Below, one piece after another: positions 1 through 54,554 of a DNA stretch of 54,554 bases; within the stretch, counting starts at the first letter, position 1; every line of letters starts with the position of its first letter. A model generated the notes under the pieces. It did no database searches. It was not told the origin of the DNA and saw only the letters and a program-made list of their open reading frames with translations. This DNA comes from a virus (taxonomy: Duplodnaviria; Caudoviricetes), in IMG/VR virus record IMGVR_UViG_3300033998_000134, positions 1-54,554 of that record; one strand, given 5' to 3'. Made by a program: the position numbers and the translations under genes.

Positions 1-127
1 TGCCTACAGGAACGGAAGCGTTTTTGATCTGTTCGATCTTGGCATTTGGCATCGTTTTAAGCGCATCGCTATTATAGAGTATTAAACCATCCACTCTCGT
101 CCATTCATCCCGCAGCATCTCTTGTGT
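1..127. repeat. Terminal direct repeat, copy 1 (circular contig overlap)
   Basis: 1-127 is identical to 54428-54554, and the portal reading frame is continuous across the junction. Confidence 0.97.
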
Positions 128-22437: not shown

Positions 22438-24375
22438 CTAAAAAAATGTTTTTTGCAGTAAATATGGTTCGATGTTTTTATTTGCGATATTGCAATATTC
22501 CTTGCTCATCTCGCTTCCGATAAATTTCCTATTAGAACGAATTGCGCATATAGCCGTAGTACCAATCCCCATGAATGGGTCGTATATCACACCTCCCTCA
22601 GGGCATCCTGCCAAAATGGGTATTTTAATCAAGTCTTCATTATAAGCCGCATAATGATTTGCGCTGGTTCCTTTGGTGGGTATATCCCAGAAGTCTGACA
22701 CATCACCCGGATTCGGCCCTTTTGTTTTGCTTAATTCTTCATTAAGTCGGTCATATCCTTTGTATTCTCTTTCCTTGCTTAGGTTATTGATTGACGAAGT
22801 AGAATATTCACCAGTGCTATACTTGTTATTATTACTGCCTCTCAATTTTCTTTTCACGCTTCCAATATTCACATTATTCCGTATTATATCCAGATCGAAA
22901 TAATACTTTTCTTTTTTTACCATGAAGAAAAAATATTCATGCTTCTTGCTAAACCGATCAGTCACAGATTCAGGCATGGCGTTACAATTATGGGTTAATA
23001 TGCCACTTGCTAATGCAAATAAATGTGACTCATCTTCAATTTCAATATCCCAAAATTTACGCCCATTACTCTTATTAATGGCAATAATTTCATTGTTGAA
23101 TTTATTATTAAGGTGTTTTGTTTTTTCAAACCTTATTTCTCCTCTATATCCATTAAATGATTTATCTCCATTTTTAAATATGCTTCTCTTAATACGAATA
23201 GATGTGTTTAATCTTGCGCAAATTGTTCTCAAATCATCAACAAAATATTTATTATCTGTAAATCCTAAACGATATCTATTATTTTTTTCATCATAATTTG
23301 CATCACCATCTAAATAAGATTTTAATACAATTTCTATGAATTTATTATCTCTTTGCCAGAATGATGTGGAAAAATGTTTACCTTTTGCTGTGTTACCAAC
23401 AATAAATTCATCAATTATGGCATTTAATATCTTACCACTCATATTGATAGTCATAGTATTACCTTTTAGATAATAATTATTACATTTGCCATTAAATAGT
23501 TTTGCAATTTTATTACAATTATCCAATCTTTCTTTTTCCTTACAATGAGAAGCTATTTGTATTATATTTCCACTACGACTACCCTCTGCCATATATAATC
23601 CAATAAACCATGGCACCAAATAATTATCTAAAATATCTTCTTCTCTATTGTTATCTGGCAATATTGTTGATTTTAAAATATCGCCAACTTTTAATTCACC
23701 GGCTCTCTTAAACCCATTTTGTGTCGGGAATATATGTTCTTGAGTACATGGAATTTTTTCTCCGCTTCTTAATACTATTTCTAATGGATTTTTAAAGTTT
23801 TTATTTTCATAAAAACATTTTACTTTGCTCCATTTTTCACCAGTCCATAATTCAACGTTTTTTAATCTTGCAAGGTCTTTAATAGTTTGAGGGAAAGTGC
23901 CCTTACTTGTTTTGGCGTATAATTTAAGTCCACCACCCAAACACTTAGCCCAGATGATATCATTTCTTACAATCCATCCTCTATCTTCGCACCCTATTGC
24001 AAAGCGATGCGGGATGAGAAGAAGGCATTTACCCGGCATTGATTTGCCTTTTACGAGGTTTCCACTTGTAATTCTGTGTGTTCCTCGAGAGATACCGAGA
24101 TTTGATCCGCTTTGCGTTGAGTAGGTATCCCCCAGATTTACCCATACAGTGCCGCTATCTTTTAACTTAGGATATATGGCATCCATAAGCGACCAAAGAT
24201 GCTCCAAATACTCCTGAAATGTAGGCTCTAACCCCCATTGTCCTTCGTATCCATAATCTCTCAATTGCCAATAAGGAGGGCTTGTTATTACGCAATCGAC
24301 ATAGTTGTCCGGTATTCGTGACAGCGTATCCAAGCAGGGCTCATTGTAAATCCTATTTTCTTCTATTGTTTTCAT
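22438..24375 (-). CDS. N4/N6 DNA methyltransferase (beta class) interrupted by an intein
   Basis: VITSPPYW catalytic motif, DPFMGIGTT SAM-binding motif and WIVRNDIIWAK; start MKTIEEN overlaps the resolvase stop (ATGA). Confidence 0.9.
   Translation of the reverse strand: MKTIEENRIYNEPCLDTLSRIPDNYVDCVITSPPYWQLRDYGYEGQWGLEPTFQEYLEHLWSLMDAIYPKLKDSGTVWVNLGDTYSTQSGSNLGISRGTHRITSGNLVKGKSMPGKCLLLIPHRFAIGCEDRGWIVRNDIIWAKCLGGGLKLYAKTSKGTFPQTIKDLARLKNVELWTGEKWSKVKCFYENKNFKNPLEIVLRSGEKIPCTQEHIFPTQNGFKRAGELKVGDILKSTILPDNNREEDILDNYLVPWFIGLYMAEGSRSGNIIQIASHCKEKERLDNCNKIAKLFNGKCNNYYLKGNTMTINMSGKILNAIIDEFIVGNTAKGKHFSTSFWQRDNKFIEIVLKSYLDGDANYDEKNNRYRLGFTDNKYFVDDLRTICARLNTSIRIKRSIFKNGDKSFNGYRGEIRFEKTKHLNNKFNNEIIAINKSNGRKFWDIEIEDESHLFALASGILTHNCNAMPESVTDRFSKKHEYFFFMVKKEKYYFDLDIIRNNVNIGSVKRKLRGSNNNKYSTGEYSTSSINNLSKEREYKGYDRLNEELSKTKGPNPGDVSDFWDIPTKGTSANHYAAYNEDLIKIPILAGCPEGGVIYDPFMGIGTTAICAIRSNRKFIGSEMSKEYCNIANKNIEPYLLQKTFF
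22987..23943 (-). mobile_element. Intein (319 aa) with LAGLIDADG homing endonuclease
   Basis: Starts CLGGG, block B CTQEHIF, LAGLIDADG-like FIGLYMAEGS and LKSYLDGDAN, ends ILTHN followed by a +1 Cys; visibly more AT-rich than the flanks. Confidence 0.92.
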
Positions 24376-26428: not shown

Positions 26429-27301
26429 TTAATACGGTGGTTCTTCTTCTTGTTTCTCTACTTCCTTATTATCCTCAACAAATGCTTCTTCCATGCTCAC
26501 CTCTTCGGCGACTACATCCTGGATCGCATTGTCTCTTTCTGCGCGGATATCAGTTTCAATATCTTGAACGATTGCGCTTTGCATCTCTATTGACAGATAC
26601 CCATATTTTGAGAGAAGCTCTCTTAACACTGTTTTTATCGCCATATCGTCAAACGAATTTGTCCACCCTATGCCTGTAGGCTCTTTCCCTGCAAGTTTCG
26701 CGAGGCTTTCTACCGTGATATCTTTGGAGAATTTGAGGGTAGGAGCATACATCTTAGCGTGTTTGGCGATCTCCTCAACTGTCGAATAGAGTGTTTTTCT
26801 GAACCCGTTCAGAAGCTCTATGTGCGCAAAATATCCGATAACCTTATCGGATTTCTTTTGCCCGGTAAAATCGATCGAACCGGTCAGCTTATCCTTCCCG
26901 GCTATTTCACCTTCGTACACAACATCAGCATTAATATACCGGTATTGTCCTGTTCTCATCGCGAGTTGGATCAATCCTTTGTAACCGATAATGAATGTGG
27001 GTGTCGGCACTCCCTTGTTTTTAAATGGCAAGATATAGGCATATCCCAAAGCTCTATTGATCGGCAGCTTCAATACAGCCGCCTTCAGTGCCTCCATCAC
27101 CACCTGGCTGGGGTTGCATGTTTGCAGGGATTTATCCGTGTTATACAGATCGATTATTGAAGCAACGAATGAGTTTGAGTTGCTTCCTAAAGCGTTCTGG
27201 AATTGGCTTTGAACCGATGGTGCATTTAGTACGCTTTTCAGCACGTCAACCGGCTTTCTTTTCTCTACTTGTTGTTGGTTGTTGTTGGTTGTTGTTGTCA
27301 T
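26429..27301 (-). CDS. recT: RecT-family single-strand annealing protein
   Basis: LPINRALGYAYILPF, IGYKGLIQLAMRTGQY and FDDMAIKTVLRELL. Confidence 0.9.
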   Translation of the reverse strand: MTTTTNNNQQQVEKRKPVDVLKSVLNAPSVQSQFQNALGSNSNSFVASIIDLYNTDKSLQTCNPSQVVMEALKAAVLKLPINRALGYAYILPFKNKGVPTPTFIIGYKGLIQLAMRTGQYRYINADVVYEGEIAGKDKLTGSIDFTGQKKSDKVIGYFAHIELLNGFRKTLYSTVEEIAKHAKMYAPTLKFSKDITVESLAKLAGKEPTGIGWTNSFDDMAIKTVLRELLSKYGYLSIEMQSAIVQDIETDIRAERDNAIQDVVAEEVSMEEAFVEDNKEVEKQEEEPPY

Positions 27302-32312: not shown

Positions 32313-32528
32313 ATGGAAGAGCGTAAATTTTATCTGAAGAGTATCGAAAGGTTACTGGCCTTTACTGTCGCCGCTATTATCCTTTATCTCATTGCCTTAA
32401 ATGGTAGATATGTGGTGGTTGAAAATAGATTGGTACTTGATAAATGGAAAATGGAGGTGTACGATGCCGGGAGCGAGGAAATACCTATTATTGTAAATGG
32501 GAGGGATATATACAATGCTGCTCGTTGA
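32313..32528 (+). CDS. Small membrane protein
   Basis: One TM segment (LLAFTVAAIILYLIAL) followed by NGRY..LDKW. Confidence 0.6.
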   Translation: MEERKFYLKSIERLLAFTVAAIILYLIALNGRYVVVENRLVLDKWKMEVYDAGSEEIPIIVNGRDIYNAAR

Positions 32529-32727
32529 ATCAATAAAACAGTATGCCGGCAGGCTTAAAACCGACAAAGCATTGCTAAGCTATCTTGACACTGAAGATTT
32601 GGTTGCCAGGTATGATCCGTGCGTGACGGTGGATGGTGTTACGGATGAATGGCTTTCCGGGTTTAAAAGGTATGCGGGAGAAAAGCATGCAAGGAACGTG
32701 AGGAAGGTGTTGAATCAGCGAATGTAA
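32515..32727 (+). CDS. Miniature integrase core-binding-domain-like protein
   Basis: Three blocks resemble, in order, blocks in the neighbouring integrase (see findings). Confidence 0.5.
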   Translation: MLLVESIKQYAGRLKTDKALLSYLDTEDLVARYDPCVTVDGVTDEWLSGFKRYAGEKHARNVRKVLNQRM

Positions 32728-33836
32728 TCCAGAACCTTCCTGTTCGCCTGATCAACTTTTTTCAGGTTGAAGTTCACGTACACCGATGTCACTCTCGATC
32801 CATACTCATGGCCCAGCGCTTCGGAGATAATATCCCTCGTGATGTCTATACCTGCGGCTATCGATGCCCATGTGTGTCGTGCATGGTAAGTTGTCAGGTC
32901 CTGGCAGATAATCCCTGCGTCGTCCTCTATCAGCTTCAACGCATAGTTTATACCCCTTTTAAAACCGTCGTAGTTTTTATACATCCTTAGGAAGGATACA
33001 AGCAATTCGTCATCCTGATATCTGTCGATGATTGCTTGTGCTTCCGGTTCAATCTTGACAGAATAATGCTTGCTTGTTTTCATCCTGGTATATTCCAACC
33101 GTCCGTTCTTGATGTTTGCTTTTTTTGCGTGTAGGAGATCCGTCAGATTAATGCCGATAAGGTAAAAGGATAACATGAAACAATCGCTGAACGGTTTCCA
33201 TTTGCCCTGATAGTCTCTCACGCGTCTCAAGTCCGCAACGGATAGATCCCGGTGCTTGGTTTTTTCTTTGAGTATTTTGAATTTCCTGAAAGGGTAGTTC
33301 CGGGTATATTCTCTGTCGATTGCGAAGTTGATCACTGCCCGGATGTTTCTCATGTGAATTGCTTTTGTATTTACGGCCAGATCCATTGAATCGTAAAATC
33401 GCTGCAACCATGTTACCGTGATATCGTCCAGGAGTGGATCATCCGTAATTTTTCTCATGGTCTCATCGTACAATCGCTTCGTATTCCCGCGTTTTGTATC
33501 GATAAATTCCCGGAATACGCTTCGTAAGGTGTGCGAAGGTAATACGTCATTGCTCAGATATGAACGGAGCTGGGCATCTGTTAGTGATGGTAGGACACCC
33601 TCCAGTTCGAGAGACAACAGAATCTTGTCTATTTGCGTCTTTTTGTTATTGATTGCCGCATTCTTCGCCCTGCTGTTTGCCCCCTTCGTGATTTGCCTTC
33701 CTTTCCATTCGGACGCAAGGCAGGAGATTCCGGTATTAATCATGAATCTTGATCGGTGGGTTATCATTATTTTAATTGGATATTCACCGTTATCTTTACG
33801 TCTTCTTTTGTCTAAATACAATATTGAATTTGCCAT
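32715..33836 (-). CDS. int: Tyrosine integrase (Bacteroidetes type, with arm-binding and SAM-like domains)
   Basis: YLDKRRRKDNGEYPIKI arm domain, GINLTDL, YTRMKT, TTYHARHTWASIA and ISEALGHEYG..TSVY. Confidence 0.93.
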   Translation of the reverse strand: MANSILYLDKRRRKDNGEYPIKIMITHRSRFMINTGISCLASEWKGRQITKGANSRAKNAAINNKKTQIDKILLSLELEGVLPSLTDAQLRSYLSNDVLPSHTLRSVFREFIDTKRGNTKRLYDETMRKITDDPLLDDITVTWLQRFYDSMDLAVNTKAIHMRNIRAVINFAIDREYTRNYPFRKFKILKEKTKHRDLSVADLRRVRDYQGKWKPFSDCFMLSFYLIGINLTDLLHAKKANIKNGRLEYTRMKTSKHYSVKIEPEAQAIIDRYQDDELLVSFLRMYKNYDGFKRGINYALKLIEDDAGIICQDLTTYHARHTWASIAAGIDITRDIISEALGHEYGSRVTSVYVNFNLKKVDQANRKVLDYIR

Positions 33837-39350: not shown

Positions 39351-39899
39351 TTAAATCATTCTGATGTAAATAATTAGCGCGATTCCGACAAGCACTCCAA
39401 AAAAGAACAGCCGGAAATTAAATCCTGTCGTCGGCGTTATTTCCTTTTTGATGTTTTTGTTTTCTTCTCTGAGTGATTCAATAGTCGTCTTTAGATTTTT
39501 GTTTTCCAGCTCGAGAGTATTCACCTCGCTGATATATTCCTTTTTTATTGCCTCCATCTCTTTGATGGTTTTATCAAGTAGGGTTTTGCTTTGAGTGATC
39601 GTCTCACTCTGCTTTGGATATTGCCCGTCAGAATTCAATGGAGCGGTTGTGTCGTAGTTTATCGTATGCGTCGATGACTCGCTCTCTAATCGGCTTACCT
39701 CCTCTTTCGTGCGCGCTAAATCGGTTTTCAGCGCTTCAATTTCAATGGTTTTTCTCTTAAGCTCCTCGTTTAATGCGAGAACTTCAGTACTGTCAAACTT
39801 GGTAATAACCCTCTCTTGGATGATCTGCTTCGGCTTACATCCAGAAAAGACGGTTAATCCAACGATTAAAGCGATCAAGTATTTCGTATTTTTTATCAT
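39351..39899 (-). CDS. Putative unimolecular spanin (lipoprotein with C-terminal TM)
   Basis: Lipobox VFSG-C, coiled coil and C-terminal TM LFFFGVLVGIALIIYI; follows the endolysin. Confidence 0.65.
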   Translation of the reverse strand: MIKNTKYLIALIVGLTVFSGCKPKQIIQERVITKFDSTEVLALNEELKRKTIEIEALKTDLARTKEEVSRLESESSTHTINYDTTAPLNSDGQYPKQSETITQSKTLLDKTIKEMEAIKKEYISEVNTLELENKNLKTTIESLREENKNIKKEITPTTGFNFRLFFFGVLVGIALIIYIRMI

Positions 39900-39940
39900 A
39901 GTAGTTAATCCTGTATTTCAACCAATTCATTTTGCTGCAT

Positions 39941-40513
39941 TTAAATTCCATCTCTCATATACTTATCGTAAGCCTTTTGCATAGAAATGTTGTAGGGTTC
40001 TCTGCCCCACTTTTTAGCCATTTCTTTATACTTCGCTCCGTTATATCTGACTGCTACTGTATGCCAGTCTTTGCGCTTTAGAGCATCATACAATATCCGG
40101 TCCGTGTTGATAAACTCTGCCATCTGGAAGATCTGCCTGTCTTCTCCTTTCTTTGCATCGTTCCACATCTCTCCGACATTTGAGTATCCGAGTCTTTTGT
40201 AGTGATAACCCATTACTTGTCCCAAGCCTATACTCGTGCTTTTCATTGCAGATTCCGGGTTAATGGCAAATGCATCATTAAATGCAAGCCATTCCTTCGA
40301 CTGCACGTCAACTTTGTTGACGCTCCATTTGCCGGAAGGTGCATAAGGCTCGTGTTTACGAAACCAGCTCGGTTCAAATTGTATAATAAGCTTGCCGTCA
40401 TCATTAAAACCTTTTCCTCCAGACTCTACGTCTATGAATGCCGCAAGAGCTTCGGGTTCAACGTCTATTCTGCATGCTTCATATTTTATCGATATTTGTT
40501 TGATCTTGTCCAT
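39941..40513 (-). CDS. Endolysin, N-acetylmuramidase (DUF3380-like)
   Basis: AFIDVESGGKGF..IQFEPSWF, STSIGLGQVMGYHY and YNG; likely start MDKIKQ. Confidence 0.88.
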   Translation of the reverse strand: MDKIKQISIKYEACRIDVEPEALAAFIDVESGGKGFNDDGKLIIQFEPSWFRKHEPYAPSGKWSVNKVDVQSKEWLAFNDAFAINPESAMKSTSIGLGQVMGYHYKRLGYSNVGEMWNDAKKGEDRQIFQMAEFINTDRILYDALKRKDWHTVAVRYNGAKYKEMAKKWGREPYNISMQKAYDKYMRDGI

Positions 40514-41021
40514 TGTTTTCTTCCTCTTCTTTCTTCTTGTCCGATTCTTTGAGTATCTGCTCGATGTCAATATTCTTGCCAACTTTTGACTGAATCTCTC
40601 CAATCAGTTGTTTTCTGAATAACTTTAGAAACGGAGTGTTTGGTCGAACAATCAGCATTGAAGCGCTCATACTCCAAAGCTCACATACTGCCGCAAACAT
40701 GCCTATTGTTTTTACAAGCACGAACGGCGCATTTTCATGTACTACCATTTCGATCGACATTACTCCCAGCAATGTAAAAGAATAGATTGCGATTTTTTTA
40801 ATAGTCTCCCGTAATGCGTTTGATAATATAAACTTCTTTAGCTTTATTGCAGCCAAAATTCCCCATATAAAGTCAGCCATTACCGCCATTCCAACTACTA
40901 TAAATGTCCACATCTCCGGTTGTATAAATGTTATTGATGCCGTTAATAATGCAATAAACCATCCATAGGCCGTGCTAAGCGCATTGCCTATATGTGTCAT
41001 AAATCTCTCAAACCAATTCAT
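40479..41021 (-). CDS. Holin (phage holin 4-like)
   Basis: Several TM segments, ADFIWGILAA and CELWSMSAS, charged C-terminus; upstream of the endolysin. Confidence 0.8.
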   Translation of the reverse strand: MNWFERFMTHIGNALSTAYGWFIALLTASITFIQPEMWTFIVVGMAVMADFIWGILAAIKLKKFILSNALRETIKKIAIYSFTLLGVMSIEMVVHENAPFVLVKTIGMFAAVCELWSMSASMLIVRPNTPFLKLFRKQLIGEIQSKVGKNIDIEQILKESDKKKEEEENNGQDQTNIDKI

Positions 41022-41102
41022 TGCCTGTATTTTATTTTGTTTTTAATTAATAGTTACTTTTCCCGGAAACGGGATGAACTTATTTCTGATGATTTTCAAT
41101 AA

Positions 41103-42101
41103 TTATTGATCGTATGGTCTGCATTTATATCTCCTAATAATATCCCAACTATGAAAAACGCCGCCATAGCAGATACACACCATTTCTATAGCATCACCTT
41201 TATTTAATTGAATTTCATTTAGTAATATACCATTCTCATAAAATCCGTTATACTCTTCAGGCCGCATAGTAATGCCTTTTTGAAGTGCATGTATTCTAAA
41301 TACCTGCCCATTCAATAGAGTATTACATGGTATAATTCTAATAGGAAGAGAAAGGAAAATGCTATTCTCGAAAAAATTATTTGCCCAACTTGTTATCTCA
41401 TCCTCCCAAAATTGCGTTATAGTTGCATTCGAAACATCTACAAACGGCGATTTAAATCCTCCAAGAAATTCAATATTACCATTACTGTTCCATTGTATAT
41501 TTCCATCAGCGATAAATCCACTTCCGTCAAATTTGAATTTTACTTTTCCGCCTGCGGCAGTAATTTCTCCTGTCTTTCCGTCAATGATAATATTCGGAAC
41601 GAAGTTTGCCTGCCCAGAATAATCCACAGCAACACCATCCACCGTTCCTCTTAACGAAATCAGTTTATCGTCCTTGAAAATCAGGTTAGCAAGGTTGGCC
41701 TCTTCCCCAATCAGAACCTTTGCGGCCAATTCTTTTAGCCATGGTATTTCATCATAATAAGTCGATAAGGTCGATTCGGACGGGTATGTTTCATCGCTTG
41801 GTACTTCACGAACGACGTAATCGTTTTTCAGTTTATACCACTTCCTGTTATCGGGGAGAGGAGCACGAACATAGATGTAATCAACGATGTTGGTATCGTT
41901 TCTGTGCGTATCGCCGGCTTTCCATTCTTTTTGTACCGGTATTTGGCCCGGCATGCCGGGAACACCTTTTGCGCTAACCCCTGTATCAACGTAATCGTTC
42001 ACGGCGTCATTCCACTGCCACCAGTTCCCATTCTCCCCAATGTAGGGAGAATGACCGTCCGAGGCCATCCAGCGCACAACTCCTGCTCCACGTATTTGCA
42101 T
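41103..42101 (-). CDS. Tail fibre-related protein
   Basis: DGHSPYIGENGNWWQW..DTGVSAKG motif and a beta-rich, AT-rich C-terminus; likely start MQIRG. Confidence 0.6.
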   Translation of the reverse strand: MQIRGAGVVRWMASDGHSPYIGENGNWWQWNDAVNDYVDTGVSAKGVPGMPGQIPVQKEWKAGDTHRNDTNIVDYIYVRAPLPDNRKWYKLKNDYVVREVPSDETYPSESTLSTYYDEIPWLKELAAKVLIGEEANLANLIFKDDKLISLRGTVDGVAVDYSGQANFVPNIIIDGKTGEITAAGGKVKFKFDGSGFIADGNIQWNSNGNIEFLGGFKSPFVDVSNATITQFWEDEITSWANNFFENSIFLSLPIRIIPCNTLLNGQVFRIHALQKGITMRPEEYNGFYENGILLNEIQLNKGDAIEMVCICYGGVFHSWDIIRRYKCRPYDQ

Positions 42102-42112
42102 AACGGCAATGT

Positions 42113-42499
42113 TTACTTTTTCATATCGATCAGTTGATGTGCTGCATCTGCAGCTATCTCTCTCCATTCTTCAAACTCCATGAAGGCAGTTATATCTTCT
42201 TCGATGGACGGATCCGTAATGCCTGCTCTCTCCTTCAGTAAGGCGGCAACGGCATTGTTTAGGATGGCAAATTCTTCTTTGGGAGGGTAAACATACTCTA
42301 TGATCTGACTTTTTATGTGTCCATAGTCGATATGACCGGTGAGAGGTATATTGTAACCCATATACACAACCTTGTCCTCACCGTCCTCATCCTGCTTGAT
42401 GCGTTCTGTGAACCCAAAGCGAATAACCTTTCCTACTGTATCGTACAGCGAGGGTATTTGATCATACTCGCTTGTCTTGAATTGTTCATACTTTTTCAT
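42113..42499 (-). CDS. Hypothetical tail-associated protein downstream of RT
   Basis: 128 aa with DYGHIKSQII..Y..EEFAI.NN..EWRE pattern; ATGA-coupled to RT. Confidence 0.6.
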   Translation of the reverse strand: MKKYEQFKTSEYDQIPSLYDTVGKVIRFGFTERIKQDEDGEDKVVYMGYNIPLTGHIDYGHIKSQIIEYVYPPKEEFAILNNAVAALLKERAGITDPSIEEDITAFMEFEEWREIAADAAHQLIDMKK

Positions 42500-43905
42500 A
42501 ATTGTTGTTCTTTATCTTTGTGAATTATTTCTCCATCTTTCTCGTAAACGTCGCTACCGGATATGCTCAATATTGATGTTCGGTCATAGTCAAAATCATA
42601 ATGCTTGTTGCCTGACCTGTCTGTCATTACGGTCCTGAAAGATGTTACGTTATGCTCTTCCAGCGTCTCGATAAAGTTTTTAATTCTTATCGAGTTTATG
42701 ATCAATCGGTATTCCTTTTCATGGAACCTGATCAATAAGACCCATCTCCCGGATCCTTGCGATGTACGAATGTCTTTCTCCCATTCCAGTATGTCGATAA
42801 CATCATTTATCACCACTGACGCACCTATCCTCGGAACATCGAAAAATTTCTTGCCGTCCCTTCCTGTTACACTGTTGTTCGCTTTTATTCCTAATCGCTT
42901 TATATCTACTCCTGTCATCTTATAATATAATCTTTTGCAGTGCTTATTCCCATGTTTTAACATGCCCCAAGCTGCTGCGTCAATCTCTTTTAATCGCTTC
43001 TTATTGGTTGCGCGGCTTCTTCTTTTTAGCCAGGCCGATTTGTTTCTCTTCCTCCAGTATAAATCTCCACCCGGGTAAATCATGAATCCGAGATAACTTA
43101 ATCCAAACGACACTCTGTGGATTTTCGGAACATGGGTTTTAAACCCCATTTCGGCCAGCCTTTCATTTGCCTTCTTCATGAATCTTTTAACCTCTCCCTT
43201 TGTCTTTCCTAAAACTACATAATCATCCATATATCGGATATAGAACTTCATTCCCATTTCCTCTTTCGCCCAATGATCAAAAGACGAAAGGATCAGATTT
43301 CCTATTATCTGGCTTGGCCTTATACCCAATGGGATTCCTATATCCCCAAATCTGTTTATCGGCTCCATCATCGCATCGATATAGCTCTGATCCTTGTAGA
43401 TCGATTCTAATGTGCGTCTTAACAGGTCGTGCGGGATACTTTGATAAAACTTACGGATATCTCCCTGTCCATACCATACCGTTTCCTCAGGGTATTCTCT
43501 CAACCATCGTTGCACTCTTAATGCTCCAGCTATCTGTCCTTTTCCTTTCCGGCTGGCATAGGTATCATAGATGAGATTTTTCTCTACCCTCTTTTCGCCG
43601 GCGGTGACCAACGATTGATGGTAAATGTGGTTCGGATGAAAGTTAAGTTTTGATATTTTACGCACCTTTCCTTGTACGCTTGTCATATCCTTATGCTTGT
43701 ATTCATCCGTACGTATTGTTTTATCAATAAGTCCGCTCTGTATCTCACACAGATTCCTAATCCTGTTATGCAGATGCGATTTTACATAATGTCGTTTTAG
43801 CTTGCCTTTGGTAGCCGACTCTTCGGCTTTCGTCAAATTATCCCAATTATACGTCTTTCTGTACGTGTATCCTTCTCTTTTCATTATTTTCGTTGCTTGC
43901 TTCAT
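42496..43905 (-). CDS. DGR reverse transcriptase with an approximately 140-aa C-terminal extension
   Basis: TYASRKGKG, GDIRKFYQSI, GIPLGIRPSQ (DGR-type SQ motif), YIRYMDD and YLGF; adjacent to TR. Confidence 0.93.
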   Translation of the reverse strand: MKQATKIMKREGYTYRKTYNWDNLTKAEESATKGKLKRHYVKSHLHNRIRNLCEIQSGLIDKTIRTDEYKHKDMTSVQGKVRKISKLNFHPNHIYHQSLVTAGEKRVEKNLIYDTYASRKGKGQIAGALRVQRWLREYPEETVWYGQGDIRKFYQSIPHDLLRRTLESIYKDQSYIDAMMEPINRFGDIGIPLGIRPSQIIGNLILSSFDHWAKEEMGMKFYIRYMDDYVVLGKTKGEVKRFMKKANERLAEMGFKTHVPKIHRVSFGLSYLGFMIYPGGDLYWRKRNKSAWLKRRSRATNKKRLKEIDAAAWGMLKHGNKHCKRLYYKMTGVDIKRLGIKANNSVTGRDGKKFFDVPRIGASVVINDVIDILEWEKDIRTSQGSGRWVLLIRFHEKEYRLIINSIRIKNFIETLEEHNVTSFRTVMTDRSGNKHYDFDYDRTSILSISGSDVYEKDGEIIHKDKEQQL

Positions 43906-44276: not shown

Positions 44277-45623
44277 TTACGCGAGCATATCGCCTCCGCT
44301 GATTTCATTCACATCCCCAAAATAAGCAAGGCGGGCTCCGATGTTCGACCACGAGTACGTCCAGGCGTTGAACGAGAGCGAGCAGGCGAGACCGCACTTC
44401 GCACCGTACGCAGCGGCGCCGCCCCAGAGCCACACCTGACCTGCAATATTGTAATAGAAGTAGTCGTTATATGATACGCCGGCTTGCACTGCATATGGAA
44501 ACATAAACGCAGCCTGCTCTCCCATCGCTATTAAATTCATTTTATGTGCAGTGGTTGCTGTATTTGAAATGGCTGCACTATGGCGATGTGCGACGAAAGT
44601 TTTGATCTTTTCAAAATCTGCCATAGTGGGGGCCGATGTGGCCGGCATAAAATTGTCTCTCCATACCACTACATCGTTATTGATCGAACACATGTGTCCG
44701 TCAAATTCCCAAAACTGTCCCCACGGGTTTTCAAAGGAGAGAACCTTTACGGAGTTGCAGGTAGCCCCTGCCGAATCGAGCACCGATGATTTCCCGTCCG
44801 CTGTACCGAGACTGAGTGTTTGACCGGTAACGATAGTATATTGGTTTGTTGCTACCGCACTTCCCGTACCGTCAAGACCTGGACCCCATACCTTCGTAGC
44901 ATCAGCTAGCTCACACTCCTGGCTACCTCTTTGTCCATAAGCGGCCATCATATACCATAACAGCATGTTTCTGAAATGCACTCCTGCCAGCCCGTAGCTT
45001 TTACCGTATAATTGTGCGCTATCCCAAAATTGTTTTACTGTTTTCGATCGGGTTGGTACGACATTGGGAACCGATCGTAGCCGTCCGCTTCCATCAACCC
45101 ATCCCTTGAACATGCCAACATACTGAGCGGGCTCTGTCCACCCCGGTAGATCCAAAAGTGACAACCATAACCGTTGTATCGTTTTGCCGGCTATCTCAAC
45201 CGTCTGAATATAGCATCCGGTTCTGGGAATCTTACCCATGAAGTTGGCGTTGGCCAAAGCTGCTACCGCACTTCCGGTCACAGGGTCAACGGCCGGTGAT
45301 CCATCAGCGAAATACCGGTTATCCTCTCTTGACAGCTCGGCGAAGTTTCCCGTTTGATCCATTACTCCTGCTTTCCACTCTCTTACCCATAGATTGAACA
45401 TCTCCCTGTTGCCACCTACGTTCACTTTTAGCGGAGTTGATGCCGGTTCGTTTACGTCAATGTAAAAAGCTACCTGGTTCAGATAAAGGTCATTATTTTT
45501 GATAATGCCTTCTTTTAGGTCTTTCATGGTTGTGCGGCCGACTGTATTTCCGAAAACACCTAAGATCTGATCCTGATCCGTAAAGTCGGTGACCAACTGC
45601 GCTTGTCTTAATTCTTTATTCAT
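44277..45623 (-). CDS. DGR target protein (putative receptor-binding protein, CLec-like C-terminus)
   Basis: FENPWGQFWEF and a C-terminal VR encoding WGGAAAYGAKCGLACSLSFNAWTYSWSNIGARL. Confidence 0.9.
   Translation of the reverse strand: MNKELRQAQLVTDFTDQDQILGVFGNTVGRTTMKDLKEGIIKNNDLYLNQVAFYIDVNEPASTPLKVNVGGNREMFNLWVREWKAGVMDQTGNFAELSREDNRYFADGSPAVDPVTGSAVAALANANFMGKIPRTGCYIQTVEIAGKTIQRLWLSLLDLPGWTEPAQYVGMFKGWVDGSGRLRSVPNVVPTRSKTVKQFWDSAQLYGKSYGLAGVHFRNMLLWYMMAAYGQRGSQECELADATKVWGPGLDGTGSAVATNQYTIVTGQTLSLGTADGKSSVLDSAGATCNSVKVLSFENPWGQFWEFDGHMCSINNDVVVWRDNFMPATSAPTMADFEKIKTFVAHRHSAAISNTATTAHKMNLIAMGEQAAFMFPYAVQAGVSYNDYFYYNIAGQVWLWGGAAAYGAKCGLACSLSFNAWTYSWSNIGARLAYFGDVNEISGGDMLA
44330..44433 (-). 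repeat. DGR variable repeat (VR)
   Basis: Changes relative to TR: AAC->GCC, GAG->GCG, AAC->TAC, AAT->AAG, AAC->CTC, AAC->TTC, AAC->TAC. Confidence 0.95.
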
Positions 45624-49892: not shown

Positions 49893-51278
49893 TTATGCCT
49901 TAGTAACTCTAACGTGTGCTTTCGGATTCTTCAGAACAAGTCCGCAAATCTCCATCAAACCGCGCGCATCACTGTCGGCCTGCGCCGATTTTCTCAAGTC
50001 AAAGTTGGTCACTCTCCATCCCATTGTCCATTTTCTCAGGAAGTCGGGGTCAAGAATAAATCCGCTGTTAGACATACCCAAGTCATCAAGTGACTGATCA
50101 TGCGTAACCATCAGTACGCCAAACTTGCTGATATACTCAGTGAATTCAATGCCGTAAACCTGTTTGCGCGTGCCTACCGATACGTTGGCTACATATCCGT
50201 TGGTCGAGCCCTGCAGATACAGATTCTCCATGTCTTTCAGTAAGCCGCTTCCAACGATCAATAGTTTACGTTTTCCGGAGTTTGTTCCGGTAAAGGCTGT
50301 CATCATGAGGTCGGTCATCTTTGCAGCGGTTACAGCGCCTCCAAAAGAAAAGTCTTTTCCTGCCTGAGTCCAGATTCCTTCAGTCCAGAACACGTCTTCG
50401 GCCTTCGTGGTATGTGCATTTTTCACTTTCTTACGCCCTTTAACCCCTTTCCATAACGAGAAATTTTGGGTACGCTTCATATCGAAAATGGCTTCCTCTT
50501 CTGCATCGCTAAAGTTCCATTCCACTTCCTTATCTGCTTTGTTGAAGATGTCGGTGATTTCAACTTGGGCGATAAACTTTTGTAAATGTTGCTCAAAGTC
50601 GGTTGGTACACCGCTGTAAGCATCGGTAGATATCTGACTTTCTGCGGCAGCACGTCCAAAACGCGTTAGCACCGTGTTAATGGGAATAGCCGGGATGACG
50701 TCTCTGCCTGGTCCGGTTCCGTTATAAGTAACAACCAGCGGATTGCCTGCGGCAGATTTTCCTACAACATATAACTGCAAATTGTGTTCTGTATCAACGG
50801 TAGATCCGTCAGCTAAATAGCCTGGCACGCCGTTTACGTTTATCGTCTGTTCCGATGCGAATATGTCCTTGTTAGATGTAACGAGCTCTACCTGTGTGCT
50901 GCCTGCTGTAACGGCAGTGGTAACGGTAGCCGTAGTGTCGATGGTATCGATGGCATAATGCCTTACTACCTGTCCGGTACTCGTCTTTACGTCTTTAATA
51001 TTCCTCGCAATCGTGTCAAGCACCACATCGTAGGGTCTGATCTTGGTAACCTTTTTATCAATCTGATCCAGAATCAGATTAACCGATTCCTCATCACTCA
51101 TGGTGCGGGATACAGAACTATTCTCATCAACTAACACAGCCCCACCTCCGGCAGGATTAACCACATCGGATGTTACAACACCTGCGTCTGCAATACCAAA
51201 TACGGCAAGTAACGCTACAAGCAGGAACATCAATATCCCGCTTTCTTCCATTTTGGATAAAATCTTATTCATTTTCAT
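49893..51278 (-). CDS. Major capsid protein with an N-terminal hydrophobic segment
   Basis: Follows the scaffold-like gene; DQIDKKVTKIRP, HLQKFIAQVE, TEGIWTQAG and CGLVLKNPKAH. Likely start MKMNK; hydrophobic run ILMFLLVALLAVFGI. Confidence 0.75.
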   Translation of the reverse strand: MKMNKILSKMEESGILMFLLVALLAVFGIADAGVVTSDVVNPAGGGAVLVDENSSVSRTMSDEESVNLILDQIDKKVTKIRPYDVVLDTIARNIKDVKTSTGQVVRHYAIDTIDTTATVTTAVTAGSTQVELVTSNKDIFASEQTINVNGVPGYLADGSTVDTEHNLQLYVVGKSAAGNPLVVTYNGTGPGRDVIPAIPINTVLTRFGRAAAESQISTDAYSGVPTDFEQHLQKFIAQVEITDIFNKADKEVEWNFSDAEEEAIFDMKRTQNFSLWKGVKGRKKVKNAHTTKAEDVFWTEGIWTQAGKDFSFGGAVTAAKMTDLMMTAFTGTNSGKRKLLIVGSGLLKDMENLYLQGSTNGYVANVSVGTRKQVYGIEFTEYISKFGVLMVTHDQSLDDLGMSNSGFILDPDFLRKWTMGWRVTNFDLRKSAQADSDARGLMEICGLVLKNPKAHVRVTKA

Positions 51279-51297
51279 GTTCAAAAAAATTATGTTA

Positions 51298-52086
51298 TTA
51301 TTCAACTGTTTCCATTTCGTCAAAGAACGACTTCTTTGCGATTTGTTTTGTTTTTGGTTTTACGGGGTTCCGCGTAACGGTCCCCATTGCCGGCATATCG
51401 CCTTCGATTTTGCCAAATTTCATTTCCACTTTTTCGTTTTTGCCTTCTACGTAGCCGGTGTTGGCAGCTTCCTGAACATCGGCATCATAAGTAATTCCTT
51501 TCGCCACCGTCTCGATGATTTGATCCGAGAAATTACCCATCAACATATCCTCTGCCGCCTGTACCAATTGATACCGCAATCTCTCGGTATTCTCTTCGGA
51601 TAGACCGTTTGCCTTAGCATACTCATCCACCCTTTTCATTGATTTCAGGAAATTTTCTTGCGCCAGCTTACCTTCTGCCTCCGTTTTCTTTGTCTGTTCC
51701 AGGTATTCGGCGTAGCCTTTTTCCATATCGTTTAGTGCATCCTCATCCTGTAGAAAATCTTTTCCGTACAATTTTGCAATCACGTATGCCGGATTCCTCC
51801 GATTACCGTTTTCATCAGTCCCCATGATTCCGGCAATGAGCGCCCCTAAACGCGGATCTTCCGCAATACGCTTTGCGAGTGCAGAATTTACTTCGTTTTG
51901 CTTGTCATATCTACTTTTGTAGCTATCGGCCTCAGATAAGACGTAATCATACAGGTCATCATCCGCAGGCTCTCCCTCGTAATCAGGATTTGATTCTCGC
52001 CAGCGGTTCATGACTGCATTCCTTCCTCTTGGCGGCTGCTCCTGTACCGGTTTTTCCTGCAGAATTGTTTGTAAATCTTTCTCCAT
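51298..52086 (-). CDS. Putative capsid scaffolding protein
   Basis: Acidic, helical 262-aa protein immediately upstream of the MCP. Confidence 0.6.
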   Translation of the reverse strand: MEKDLQTILQEKPVQEQPPRGRNAVMNRWRESNPDYEGEPADDDLYDYVLSEADSYKSRYDKQNEVNSALAKRIAEDPRLGALIAGIMGTDENGNRRNPAYVIAKLYGKDFLQDEDALNDMEKGYAEYLEQTKKTEAEGKLAQENFLKSMKRVDEYAKANGLSEENTERLRYQLVQAAEDMLMGNFSDQIIETVAKGITYDADVQEAANTGYVEGKNEKVEMKFGKIEGDMPAMGTVTRNPVKPKTKQIAKKSFFDEMETVE

Positions 52087-52125
52087 TTTTTATACAGATT
52101 AATTGTTATCTGACAATATCAGACA

Positions 52126-52169
52126 CAAATATGCAGTTTTGAAGTTTGCCGAGTGTGTGTTAAAGTAAA
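52126..52169 (-). promoter_or_regulatory. Putative late promoter (TTTACTTTAACACACA-N24-TTTG) for the scaffold/capsid/tail operon
   Basis: Motif at 52154-52169 with CATATTTG ending at 52126; same 28-nt offset. Confidence 0.6.
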
Positions 52170-52268
52170 TTTAAAATCAGATTGTTGATACATTTATTGC
52201 CTTTTTATTTTATATTTTGGTAATGTTTTGTTTCTTTGGCGTATATCACTATTAAATAGATAACCGCT

Positions 52269-52664
52269 ATGGCGAAACTTTACATGAAGCTGGAAAAGAA
52301 CAGGGAGTTCTATCGAGCATGTGAGAAGATAAGGCGAGAAGAGAAAGAATATCTCTCAACAAAGGACATAGCCGAGAGGGCCGAGAACACTAAATGCTCT
52401 TCATTTTTTATGAGCGAGTACTATATTAAGCGCCTCCTGTGGGAGATCAACACGGACCGACACAAGTTGTCAAAATTTCAGCACATCCGCGACAAACACG
52501 AAGAAATCTATGCCAGATACAAAGCTCTTCTATCTGCCAAAGACGGCAAGCCGCTTTCATGGTATGCAAGACAGATAAGCATGCAGCCAGCGCCTCGATT
52601 CTATATCGATAAAGATTATGCAACAATTTTGTATTACAAATTAATTCACAGTAATAAATATTAA
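52269..52664 (+). CDS. Hypothetical basic protein with an internal duplication (candidate regulator)
   Basis: Two similar halves (CSSFFMSEYYIKRLL and APRFYIDKDYATILY); divergent from the scaffold gene. Confidence 0.65.
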   Translation: MAKLYMKLEKNREFYRACEKIRREEKEYLSTKDIAERAENTKCSSFFMSEYYIKRLLWEINTDRHKLSKFQHIRDKHEEIYARYKALLSAKDGKPLSWYARQISMQPAPRFYIDKDYATILYYKLIHSNKY

Positions 52665-52670
52665 AAAACT

Positions 52671-52814
52671 ATGAGTAAACTGTTTCGTAAGATTGCAGAA
52701 AGACTGCTTGGCAGAAAAAGTGAAAAAGAAAATAACGATACGGAGAGGATTGTCAAGGAATCCATCCCGCTTTCAGAGGCACTAAAACAATGGAGAAAAG
52801 AAAATGGTTCTTAA
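52671..52814 (+). CDS. Small protein (47 aa) with an amphipathic N-terminus
   Basis: MSKLFRKIAERLLGRK...KENGS*; lies between the 131-aa gene and the rhomboid. Confidence 0.5.
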   Translation: MSKLFRKIAERLLGRKSEKENNDTERIVKESIPLSEALKQWRKENGS

Positions 52815-53319
52815 ATATATCGTCGCAGCTCTTTTCGTGGCGGTGTACTTCATCTATGGGCGTGAGCTGGGATTTACTTCCGTATCTCCATTCTATACTC
52901 ACCTTACGTTCTCCTTTCAGCACGGAAGTATCATCCACCTTGCATTGAATACCCTTGTTTTTATTTCCACGTTCCGGGTGATGGAGCGATTCGTCAAGCC
53001 GTTCGTTCTGTTTCTTGCGATATATATCATTGCAGTGATGGCTTCTTTTTCTTCCGTTACGGATATCCCAACCGTTGGATCGTCCGGCATGATCTATGCA
53101 ATGTTCGGCATGGAGACGGTGATCGTTATATACAATAAAGCGACCGGAAAACAGAAGAGGTTATTCTTCTTCGGTATCATCGTGATGCTTGCGGCGTCCT
53201 TTTTCAATGCCGGCAGTTCGTTTATGGTGCATATAACCTCCTGCACATTCGGGGCAATGTTCTATATGGTAAAAAGATGGAGACATCTTCGCAGACATCT
53301 CCATCCATCAAAAAACTAA
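52804..53319 (+). CDS. Rhomboid-family intramembrane serine protease
   Basis: FQHGSIIHLALN (HxxxxHxxxN), VGSSG catalytic Ser, TM6 His (FMVH) and six hydrophobic segments. Confidence 0.88.
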   Translation: MVLKYIVAALFVAVYFIYGRELGFTSVSPFYTHLTFSFQHGSIIHLALNTLVFISTFRVMERFVKPFVLFLAIYIIAVMASFSSVTDIPTVGSSGMIYAMFGMETVIVIYNKATGKQKRLFFFGIIVMLAASFFNAGSSFMVHITSCTFGAMFYMVKRWRHLRRHLHPSKN

Positions 53320-53334
53320 CTAACCATCATTTCA

Positions 53335-53841
53335 TCAAAAAAAGTTGCCGCCCGTTCTCGACCGTGCTATTCGTTTTTCCAGATATGCACGGCCGTCCAT
53401 AAGTGCATTGTCAGCCCTTGCTTTGTAAAGTGCTGCATCTTGTGCATCCTTCGTCTCCAGCCATCGGTACATAATGTAAGACACAAGGAATTCTCTTGTT
53501 TTTATACTCACCTGTTTGTTGTAAAACTGATTATAATCATCGGGCATCAAAAGCGAGAAACTAAAATCCCGATCAATCGAGAAGTTGGACTCCTCAAAGA
53601 AATACTGCTCGTCCGTCTCAGGTGCATACTGCATGTATGCTCCGTATCTGTCCATCACCTTTGCCTGTGCATCAAAAAACAACTCCCTGAACTTGCGAAA
53701 ATATTCTTCGTCAAATACAAACTGCTCGAAGAGACTCTGTCCGTCACCTGCAATCTTCCTTTCGGCATACAGTGACGATTCCTGTTTAACTGCTTCGAGA
53801 ATATGATCGTGCGAAAATATGTAAGGTACTATTATACTCAT
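53335..53841 (-). CDS. Putative head completion/adaptor protein
   Basis: 168 aa coupled to the portal stop; EFLVSYIMYRWL motif. Confidence 0.55.
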   Translation of the reverse strand: MSIIVPYIFSHDHILEAVKQESSLYAERKIAGDGQSLFEQFVFDEEYFRKFRELFFDAQAKVMDRYGAYMQYAPETDEQYFFEESNFSIDRDFSFSLLMPDDYNQFYNKQVSIKTREFLVSYIMYRWLETKDAQDAALYKARADNALMDGRAYLEKRIARSRTGGNFF

Positions 53842-54427
53842 TGCCGTAACCCTTTATTGATTATTTCCATTGCCTGCGGGTTTGCCTGTGAATAGATCTG
53901 CTCTGCCACTTCTGGATTGATACCTTGCTGCATTGCCTGATTTTGCGCTTCCGTTTGATCTGCTTCTATCGATTGCAGCAGCTTGTCGGCAAACGGGAAT
54001 GCACCGTTCTCGAGCATCTGCTTCAAATTAATTGCTCCTGCCTGCCAGAACTGCAATAGCATATCGTTGATAATTTGACGGTACGATGCCGTCGACGTGC
54101 TCTCCGTAATGCTCAAATCAAACGATACGTCTCTCACAAGCTCAGGGTTGTACGTTATGGACTTGATTCGATTGCTGCTTCCGTTTATGTTTATGATACG
54201 TTTTTCGGTGTAGTACTGCTGTACGAGTTTCAGGTTCTTTAAATCCCTCGACTCCCTTAATTCGCGGAATGATTCAAATATCTCCATAAGTGAAGAGGAT
54301 GAGTTCTGCGTCTGTTGTAAATAAAGCGATGACGGCGTCCCCGATTTAGGTGCCTGTCCCTGCAGTGCTCCGGATACGCCGGACACTTCTTCCATCATTT
54401 TGATTTGAAGTGCAATCATATCCGTAA
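53838..54427 (-). CDS. Portal protein, 3' part
   Basis: In-frame continuation of the ORF starting at 1372 across the circular junction. Confidence 0.8.
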
Positions 54428-54554
54428 TGCCTACAGGAACGGAAGCGTTTTTGATCTGTTCGATCTTGGCATTTGGCATCGTTTTAAGCGCATCGCTATT
54501 ATAGAGTATTAAACCATCCACTCTCGTCCATTCATCCCGCAGCATCTCTTGTGT
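54428..54554. repeat. Terminal direct repeat, copy 2
   Basis: Identical to 1-127. Confidence 0.97.

Follow-up and report, generated by a model that had tools for sequence, protein, structure and literature searches.

A virus-encoded rhomboid protease and a signal-peptide-like capsid leader in the head block of gut Bacteroidales phages

Why does a tailed phage keep the gene for an intramembrane protease among its head genes, next to a major capsid protein that begins with a membrane-type segment? The question is posed by the IMG/VR record IMGVR_UViG_3300033998_000134 (Duplodnaviria; Caudoviricetes), which was analyzed over its whole length of 54,554 nucleotides (hereafter the window) and is the complete 54,554-bp genome of a temperate phage of gut Bacteroidales. 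A first-pass annotation had noted an intact rhomboid in the neighborhood of a capsid protein with an N-terminal hydrophobic run, and had proposed that capsids assemble tethered to the inner membrane and are released by intramembrane proteolysis. The observation was confirmed here and turned out to be general: among related phages, rhomboid and capsid leader are coupled in evolution, being inherited and lost together. The interpretation is supported in part, with membrane polarity speaking against its simplest version; that the phage rhomboid processes or otherwise acts on the capsid leader is our tentative answer, with a chance that we place slightly below even.

The capsid leader and the rhomboid

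The argument concerns four features of the window:
49893-51278, minus strand: major capsid protein, 461 amino acids (aa), SU10_MCP PF17236, HK97 fold
51192-51278, minus strand: capsid leader, residues 1-29, consisting of the Lys-rich tail MKMNKILSKMEES and the hydrophobic run ILMFLLVALLAVFGI
51075-51191, minus strand: capsid residues 30-68, with the candidate cut-site motifs ADA↓GV and VVTS↓DV and a disordered, acidic, Gly-rich linker
52804-53319, plus strand: rhomboid, 171 aa, Pfam PF01694

The capsid protein is of the SU10 type with an HK97 fold: it matched SU10_MCP PF17236 (E=3.2e-28; 99.5 bits against a cut-off of 24.1) and PHROG 26635 (E=1.2e-47), and Foldseek assigned its AlphaFold2 model to the capsid protein of Vibrio phage VP1 (9in6, E=9e-23), followed by those of phicrAss001 and SU10, with HK97 also matched. 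To our knowledge, HK97-type capsid proteins normally lack transmembrane segments. In the window protein, a tail with three lysines is followed by the run ILMFLLVALLAVFGI (residues 15-29, 15 residues), the stretch ADAGVVTSDVV and a disordered linker of about 38 residues. Residues 30-68, which precede the HK97 N-arm, were modeled with a predicted local distance difference test (pLDDT) score below 50 and contain seven Asp/Glu against one Lys/Arg; the confidently folded core begins near residue 70. For the run, the Kyte-Doolittle mean over 15 residues is 3.14, more than in any other of the genome's 64 non-nested open reading frames (ORFs), and in genomes scanned whole the capsid protein was the only head-module protein with a membrane-like segment.

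The start codon is the first ATG past the scaffold stop codon, at 51278, and gives a product beginning MKMNKILSKMEESGILMFLLVALLAVFGIADAGVV; an alternative TTG upstream, at 51323, would overlap the scaffold gene. A comparable hydrophobic run was found in 113 of 115 capsid homologs of at least 400 aa, and of the two without it, one seems to have been called from too late a start and the other to carry a different N-terminal fusion. Upstream of the capsid ATG the frame soon closes: it stays open over 0-14 codons in 13 of the 15 related viral loci (24 in L031, 41 in L030) and over 4-6 codons in the provirus locus L004 and two isolate loci. Within the leader (36 codons compared), synonymous changes exceeded nonsynonymous ones against each of three relatives (9 versus 3, 13 versus 9, 3 versus 2). 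Because the homologs share it, the upstream frames are short and synonymous changes prevail, the leader is, as judged from these comparisons, genuinely translated and conserved and not a chance extension of the reading frame, and a translation start downstream of the run, a possibility raised in the first-pass annotation, is at odds with the same three lines of evidence. A profile search among 1.84 billion representative proteins retrieved 799 representative clusters at E≤1e-3, and among the best 133 full-length representatives (at least 400 aa) the leader was present in 114, borderline in 5 and absent in 14. The leader is a common, previously unremarked feature of a large capsid family and no quirk of the window phage. 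Independently of the leader, the capsid protein of a close relative (P0007; G001 39583-41220) was seen to be enlarged to 545 aa by a C-terminal immunoglobulin-like Big_2 extension (PF02368), representing a fused decoration domain.

By its sequence and predicted fold, the rhomboid is a minimal six-helix intramembrane serine protease that looks active; it is intact, as the first-pass annotation had stated. With 39.9 bits (E=6e-10), it clears the curated threshold of PF01694 (MEROPS S54; 22.6 bits) and carries the key residues H40, H45-x3-N49, G92-S-S94-G and H143, thus the HxxxN motif in helix 2, the catalytic Ser within GxSx in helix 4 and the His in helix 6. Across 44 distinct phage rhomboids, all of them bare six-helix cores of 143-199 aa, H45, G92, S94 and H143 were invariant and N49 was present in 43; the corresponding stretches align to 'GLSG' and 'AHIAG' of GlpG. 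The window sequence alone gave no match in a phmmer search against the PDB, while a profile built from 26 phage rhomboids matched E. coli GlpG with E=8.8e-13. The AlphaFold2 model (pLDDT 94.6) shows six long helices plus the L1 helix, and all 31 Foldseek matches at E≤0.001 were GlpG structures (template modeling score 0.60-0.71). The best NCBIfam match was rhombosortase TIGR03902 (E=2.6e-5), with 24.2 bits against a cut-off of 84, so that the protein is not a member of that family. PF01694 also matched above its cut-off in five of five related viral records.

Co-occurrence and phylogeny of rhomboid and leader

All loci for the comparative analysis were sampled from the capsid side only. A first round comprised 18 loci, namely 15 viral contigs, one provirus and the cultured Bacteroides phages BF1-TP2 and BKO1-TP3. 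A purpose-built rhomboid hidden Markov model (HMM) detected the rhomboid in 18 of 18 loci, each time encoded by the other strand and 1.3-2.9 kb upstream of the capsid gene, and the capsid leader was likewise present in all 18. This divergent synteny of rhomboid and capsid genes persists down to 30% capsid identity. BF1-TP2 has the order gp58 (148 aa), rhomboid gp59, TerL-like gp60 and portal gp61 in a single operon, and BS-TP4 carries a rhomboid as well. In a metagenome scan, every locus that included the capsid N-terminus had the leader (19/19); the rhomboid was found in all nine loci with at least 2 kb of upstream sequence and as a partial copy at the contig end of a tenth, and the nine loci without a rhomboid match have at most 1.6 kb upstream.

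Exceptions were hunted with an alignment of leaderless capsid representatives, which was used to fetch 80 viral and 80 genome loci. The rhomboid was present in 65 of the viral loci and absent from 15; when Pfam was run on the whole records of these 15 and one positive control, the control was the single match among the 16, in agreement with the HMM. None of the 80 genome loci, mostly from assemblies of Muribaculaceae or other Bacteroidales, had a rhomboid within 10 kb. Capsid cores were then clustered at 90% identity, giving 106 clusters, and the leader was called with an alignment-based anchor:
Rhomboid present: 29 clusters with leader, 0 without
Rhomboid absent, upstream flank of at least 3.5 kb: 29 with leader, 32 without
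Rhomboid absent, flank too short for judging: 9 with leader, 7 without

Two of the 29 rhomboid-linked leaders fall just below the hydropathy cut-off (1.83 and 1.91) yet are plainly signal-like, and one of the 32 clusters called leaderless is borderline. The rhomboid is always accompanied by the leader, with the divergent layout of the genes unchanged across the 29 clusters, and the leader does not require a phage rhomboid. The co-occurrence expected by the first-pass annotation thus holds in one direction, from rhomboid to leader, and fails in the other, given the 29 clusters that keep the leader in the absence of a phage rhomboid.

A tree of the 106 capsid cores was calculated with FastTree, leader columns excluded, and changes were counted by parsimony. 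With the exception of L058, which forms a long branch inside the window's own rhomboid-bearing group, the rhomboid-less clusters make up one clade of 76 rows (support 98). Rhomboid and leader are both missing from L058 and L059, and in the case of L059 no PF01694 match was obtained over the whole record (46.5 kb, with terminal repeats). An IQ-TREE analysis of 54 rows likewise placed L058 within a 100%-supported set having 13 rhomboid-bearing rows; forcing all rhomboid-less rows together cost 47.8 log-likelihood units (approximately unbiased test, p-AU 0.034), a comparison in which the tested group was named after the tree had been seen. Of nine leader-state changes on the tree, eight fall within the rhomboid-less clade and one at L058; rhomboid-bearing branches have none, although they account for 13.5 units of tree length against 23.3 in the rhomboid-less clade (total about 37). 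At the rate of that clade, 4.6 changes would be expected on rhomboid-bearing branches versus none observed (Poisson P(0)=0.0096; binomial 0.026); these values are to be read with the counts being parsimony counts on a fast tree and with the rhomboid-less sample having been seeded from leaderless proteins, which inflates the rate of leader loss in the test. This is the pattern expected of a co-adapted pair whose leader becomes dispensable once the rhomboid is gone; it fits such a pair rather than proving an enzyme-substrate relation.

Cut site, membrane topology and competing explanations

Judged by their residue composition, the window leader and all 29 rhomboid-linked cluster leaders have a Sec-type n-h-c layout with small residues at -1 and -3. 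In the rhomboid-linked leaders, small residues come after a basic tail (median 9 residues, net charge +3) and an uncharged stretch with a median of 18 residues; tails are longer in rhomboid-less leaders (median 22). Hydropathy ranges from 2.6 to 3.2 across lineages. In nearly all leaders, the run is followed by a small-residue motif ending in Ala or Ser: VVTS↓D in the window, VVTA↓D and AMTA↓D in close relatives, YACA↓A, YAMA↓A, VMMA↓A or VMMA↓D, and CMA↓V in distant rhomboid-linked lineages, and TMASA↓, LAMA↓ and MAFA↓ in rhomboid-less ones. Leaderless members start a few residues before a '[VI][VI]AG..GG.H[VI]V.GPLTT' block, which is directly after the 'x-[LM]-A-x-[AS]' motif of leader-bearing members. 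As these proteins begin right past the conserved motif, the leader looks like an optional, removable propeptide. This series of proteins suggests a mature N-terminus just after the small-residue motif, a few residues downstream of ADA↓G, and the cut would most likely fall 5-10 residues past the hydrophobic run, where x-A-x-A/S is conserved.

The first-pass annotation had favored I-A-D-A↓G-V as a rhomboid site. In the accessible part of Strisovsky et al. (2009), the rhomboid recognition motif is given as a small P1, a large hydrophobic P4 and a hydrophobic P2' residue, with aspartate being deleterious at most positions from P5 to P2'. The proposed site is weakened by its unfavorable Asp at P2 and by the family's conserved small-residue motif lying a few residues further on. 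When the motif is applied loosely, several sites fit, namely M-E-E-S↓G-I before the run and I-A-D-A↓G-V and V-V-T-S↓D-V after it.

Leaders of the rhomboid-less sister clade (L113-L192, L038-L040) are built differently and are noted here as a separate observation: a cytoplasmic tail of about 22 residues is followed by a Trp/Ile-rich run of about 20 residues, a 'GDGD'-type turn and a second semi-hydrophobic stretch, with two clear hydrophobic segments in L040. Such leaders may be helical hairpins instead of signal peptides, an arrangement that is plausible for some rhomboid-less lineages such as L040. For the window's own clade, a hairpin with both ends in the cytoplasm (N-in, C-in), which would remove the difficulty of membrane orientation discussed below, was rejected because of the non-hydrophobic segment behind the run, in which Asp, Asn and Pro occur.

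According to the explanation we favor, the capsid protein would be made as a precursor, with the signal-peptide-like leader joined to the HK97 core by the flexible acidic linker. The leader would bring newly made capsid protein to the inner membrane, where the phage's minimal rhomboid, encoded in the head/packaging block, would help to remove or clear it; the leader-free protein could then assemble with scaffold and portal in the cytoplasm. The rhomboid would fill the role of the prohead protease of other phages, and related phages that have lost it would borrow a host enzyme or drop the leader. Membrane insertion, cleavage, the cut site and the pairing of enzyme and substrate we infer. That a widespread lineage of gut Bacteroidales phages has a membrane-anchored HK97-fold capsid precursor and a virus-encoded rhomboid as its capsid maturation protease is a further-reaching proposition, possible in our view, with the probabilities leaning against it. 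Capsids assembling while tethered to the membrane, as originally envisaged, are unlikely, being geometrically improbable for a closed shell; if cleavage occurs, the release of subunits or capsomers before assembly is more plausible.

Several observations weigh against rhomboid processing of the leader, orientation among them. The rhomboid has 14 Lys/Arg on its predicted cytoplasmic side versus one on the periplasmic side, and therefore the usual topology with the active site open to the periplasm; an inverted topology was ruled out by the same count. The leader, with three Lys before the run and seven Asp/Glu versus one Lys/Arg after it, is predicted to be N-in. Known rhomboid substrates, as described in the available portion of Strisovsky et al. 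(2009), are single-pass proteins of N-out/C-in orientation that are cut at or near the top of the helix. The capsid leader, as far as can be told by charge bias only, fails this canonical orientation, and the caveat of a periplasm-facing active site raised in the first-pass annotation has therefore been borne out. A cut after an N-in helix at the periplasmic face corresponds to the geometry of signal peptidase I. Furthermore, the capsid body behind an N-in leader would land on the wrong side of the membrane unless translocation were aborted, and the route that keeps the body in the cytoplasm or returns it there is left unexplained by rhomboid processing. Fitting of the rhomboid motif carries little weight because the site before the run fits too. 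The leader is retained while the rhomboid slot is empty in L039 and L040, where a gene of 148 or 140 aa, respectively, directly abuts the TerL-like gene at the place that harbors the rhomboid in BF1-TP2 (these 140-148-aa genes of relatives were likened to the window's 131-aa gene by position and one shared motif only, unaligned), and no PF01694 match was found in four larger rhomboid-less, leader-bearing records (38.9-44.8 kb, 59-93% complete). The 29 clusters that keep the leader with no rhomboid in the fetched flanks imply that a host enzyme can suffice. Finally, the association rests on few independent events because the rhomboid state changes only twice on the tree, and the limits stated above for the tree tests (grouping after the fact, seeding from leaderless proteins, parsimony on a fast tree) point in the same direction.

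One way around the orientation problem is indicated in the part of Strisovsky et al. (2009) accessible to us: in a type II protein, a distal motif could reach the active site of the rhomboid by looping back, and the Gly-rich stretch after the run would, from its composition, permit such looping. A complex prediction for the rhomboid with capsid residues 1-80 scored 0.01 with controls not run and weighs neither way.

A first competing explanation, which we consider less likely than rhomboid processing, is that a host enzyme such as signal peptidase I, a host rhomboid or another protease removes the leader, and that the phage rhomboid acts on a different membrane substrate, for example the phage's unimolecular spanin, its holin or a protein of the host envelope, thereby affecting the timing of lysis or the surface of the host. 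The abundance of leaders in phages without a rhomboid speaks for it, as do the textbook n-h-c signal peptide with small -1/-3 residues and N-in charge bias, the (far sub-threshold) rhombosortase match, and the finding that all cell-genome controls of the Pfam scan, Bacteroides thetaiotaomicron included, carry rhomboids of their own. The window genome has few other membrane proteins, and the best alternative substrate lies in its lysis block (39351-41021, minus strand), which encodes a spanin-like protein, a muramidase and a multi-helix holin-like protein:
39351-39899, minus strand: spanin-like protein with a lipoprotein-type N-terminus (…FSGC), a coiled coil and a C-terminal membrane helix
39941-40513: muramidase (N-acetylmuramidase), Pfam PF11860, E=6.6e-38

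The C-terminal helix of the spanin-like protein has the N-out/C-in orientation normally cut by rhomboids. However, spanin-like proteins fail to explain the distribution of the rhomboid because they are found equally in phages with and without it. Nor would removal by a host enzyme account for the fixed place of the rhomboid in the head/packaging block, for the leader never being lost beside a rhomboid or for the joint absence of both in L058 and L059, and cleavage by signal peptidase I would imply export of the capsid protein.

Rather improbable is a clean-up function: during the massive late synthesis of capsid protein, precursors or free leader peptides may block the membrane or the Sec translocon, and the rhomboid would dispose of them. 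It predicts the same one-way dependence, the rhomboid being useful only with a leader and the leader being possible without a rhomboid, and the accessible text of PMC7232013 links bacterial rhomboids to the quality control of orphan membrane proteins. Against it, free signal peptides are N-in/C-out and thus again of non-canonical polarity; no analysis reported here separates clean-up from processing of the leader. Equally little credit goes to the idea that the N-terminus never meets a membrane and is an internal propeptide or scaffold-contact helix, kept in the virion or trimmed by an unrecognised protease, with the rhomboid linked to it by shared ancestry only. In its favor, the rhomboid distribution needs just two tree changes, so that clade history accounts for a good part of the association; at 15 residues, the run is rather short to span a membrane; and HK97-fold N-termini generally face the procapsid interior. 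Against it, lineages whose capsid identity is as low as about 30% still have the n-h-c layout, basic ahead of the run and acidic behind it; a hydropathy of 2.6-3.2 would be hard to keep soluble; and free loss of the leader is confined to lineages without the rhomboid.

Genome context, known systems and implications

The remaining features of the head block and of the record are as follows:
53838-54554, minus strand: portal, C-terminal part (P22_portal, E=2.4e-20; PHROG 156)
2-1372, minus strand: portal, N-terminal part (PHROG 156)
53335-53841, minus strand: 168-aa gene between the portal and the plus-strand cassette (PHROG 19255, E=1.4e-5, a PHROG that carries no function)
52671-52814, plus strand: putative 47-aa ORF overlapping the rhomboid start by 11 nt, with only a sub-threshold Pfam match
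52269-52664, plus strand: first gene of the plus-strand cassette, 131 aa (PHROG 27246, E=2.2e-6)
51298-52086, minus strand: scaffold-like protein, 262 aa (PHROG 22323, E=2.4e-20, a PHROG that carries no function)
1424-13258, minus strand: polyvalent protein, 3944 aa, directly upstream of the portal, with a RadC-like JAB domain (1815-1920) and LPD38 (3630-3811)
32715-33836: integrase
1-127 and 54428-54554: direct terminal repeat, 127 bp

The phage was classified as temperate because of the integrase gene, and the splitting of the portal gene between both record ends indicates a circularly closed assembly with its breakpoint inside the portal. The plus-strand trio (52269-52664, 52671-52814, 52804-53319) is inverted within the minus-strand head block, flanked by portal and 168-aa gene on one side and by scaffold-like and capsid genes on the other. 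The layout agrees with the operon described in the first-pass annotation, although its 'adaptor' label for the 168-aa gene could not be verified; the scaffold label was given because the gene lies directly upstream of the capsid gene and all relatives share this order. A search with PADLOC gave no match for the cassette or neighboring genes, and hence no sign of a defense system at the cassette. The first-pass annotation had also recognized no conventional prohead protease, which stands for the part of the genome that was scanned: no prohead-protease family was matched among 37 of the 64 non-nested window ORFs compared with Pfam and/or PHROGs, 27 ORFs being unscanned. Two matches were loosely protease-related, a sub-threshold hit of the scaffold-like protein to a PHROG named 'metallo-endopeptidase' (E=0.0053) and the RadC-like JAB domain of the polyvalent protein.

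Some further features of these genomes were noted in passing. BKO1-TP3 has a giant 'DarB-like antirestriction' gene at the place of the window's 3944-aa polyvalent protein. A reverse transcriptase gene (42496-43905, minus strand; RVT_1 E=8.6e-18, PHROG 1423 E=5e-65) adjoins a tail-protein gene (44277-45623, minus strand; PHROG 5302), a layout that suggests a diversity-generating retroelement targeting the tail protein. The DNA methylase gene at 22438-24375 (minus strand; N6_N4_Mtase E=1.6e-42) may be interrupted by an intein, with a sub-threshold match to an intein-splicing domain over residues 183-463. A small single-helix protein with a conserved 'ALNGRY...DKW' motif (window 32313-32528, plus strand; G001 53950-54174; G012 26895-27062) is common to phages with and without the rhomboid.

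Among known systems, the window rhomboid shares family, fold and the catalytic Ser/His/HxxxN residues with GlpG and AarA, and the closest functional likeness is that of Providencia stuartii AarA and TatA, where a small membrane-anchored precursor is processed at its N-terminus. AarA activates TatA by trimming a short N-terminal extension, as stated in the accessible parts of PMC3712462 and PMC2941825. The window rhomboid differs from GlpG and AarA in being virus-encoded, in being a bare six-helix core and in sitting in a head/packaging operon, and its proposed substrate differs from the N-out TatA in being a 461-aa capsid protein of soluble fold whose leader is predicted to be N-in. Among rhombosortases, which act on GlyGly-CTERM proteins and cut C-terminal anchors of their substrates, similarly minimal rhomboids occur; the window rhomboid scored below the family cut-off, and no GlyGly-CTERM protein was noticed in the window genome.

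Capsid propeptides paired with phage-encoded prohead proteases are well known from HK97 (delta domain and gp4) and T4 (gp23 and gp21), whose proteases are soluble, co-assembled inside the prohead and active after assembly; the membrane-attached prohead of T4 may be a further precedent (neither 'membrane' nor 'gp40' was found in PMC3012670). Like these phages, the window phage has a capsid protein with a dispensable N-terminal extension and a protease of its own in the head module. Unlike in HK97 and T4, the extension here is a membrane-type segment and no phage protease was found other than an integral membrane one; any cut would therefore have to be made at the membrane, probably before assembly. 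The leader has the layout of Sec signal peptides and M13 procoat, with a basic n-region, an uncharged stretch and small -1/-3 residues, whereas, unlike Sec cargo, the capsid protein must end up in the cytoplasm with portal, scaffold and terminase. In Staphylococcus phage 80alpha, the soluble host cysteine protease Prp trims capsid and scaffold proteins, the leader there not being hydrophobic. There, a host enzyme thus takes a short leader off a capsid protein, and the rhomboid-less, leader-bearing clade would need something similar.

The presence of a phage rhomboid gene as such is not new because it is annotated in GenBank phage records: the gene is named, with no function stated, in BF1-TP2 (gp59) and BS-TP4 (PQ571263, PQ571277). 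Both phages have the same module, with the rhomboid divergent from scaffold and capsid genes and a hydrophobic leader on the capsid protein; their capsid proteins are 30-35% identical to that of the window, and their rhomboids went undetected by tblastn from the window's rhomboid. In BKO1-TP3, gp50 (PQ571269, L016 5939-6457) has the product name 'glycoside hydrolase', yet it is a rhomboid with HxxxN, GLSG and the helix-6 His, and the record's own note cites a rhomboid structure match. A literature search, with the full text of most subscription journals outside its scope, returned no paper on BF1-TP2, on a membrane segment of an HK97-type capsid protein or on any connection between a phage rhomboid and a capsid protein; the words 'phage' and 'virus' do not occur in the main text of a 2025 review of the rhomboid superfamily (PMC12615303). 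The association of a phage rhomboid with a leader-bearing capsid protein appears to be new.

What is observed is that, through deep divergence, some members of a large capsid family have retained a phage-encoded rhomboid in the head block, and if the two proteins should not be enzyme and substrate, a leader on a capsid protein would still call for an explanation. As far as we know, capsid maturation in tailed phages is thought to use soluble proteases inside the prohead, or none, capsid proteins are regarded as purely cytoplasmic, and the natural substrates of bacterial-type rhomboids are mostly unknown. Cultured phages suited to a direct test exist in BF1-TP2, BKO1-TP3 and BS-TP4. Should the rhomboid be the capsid maturation protease, virion morphogenesis would for the first time be seen to involve an intramembrane protease, and a substrate would for the first time be identified for a viral rhomboid. 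If the two proteins are enzyme and substrate, the conserved 'rhomboid' genes that stand unnamed or mislabelled in gut phage records would be explained, bacterial-type rhomboids would gain an abundant and easily assayed natural substrate, and a membrane step would be added to the assembly of HK97-type capsids.

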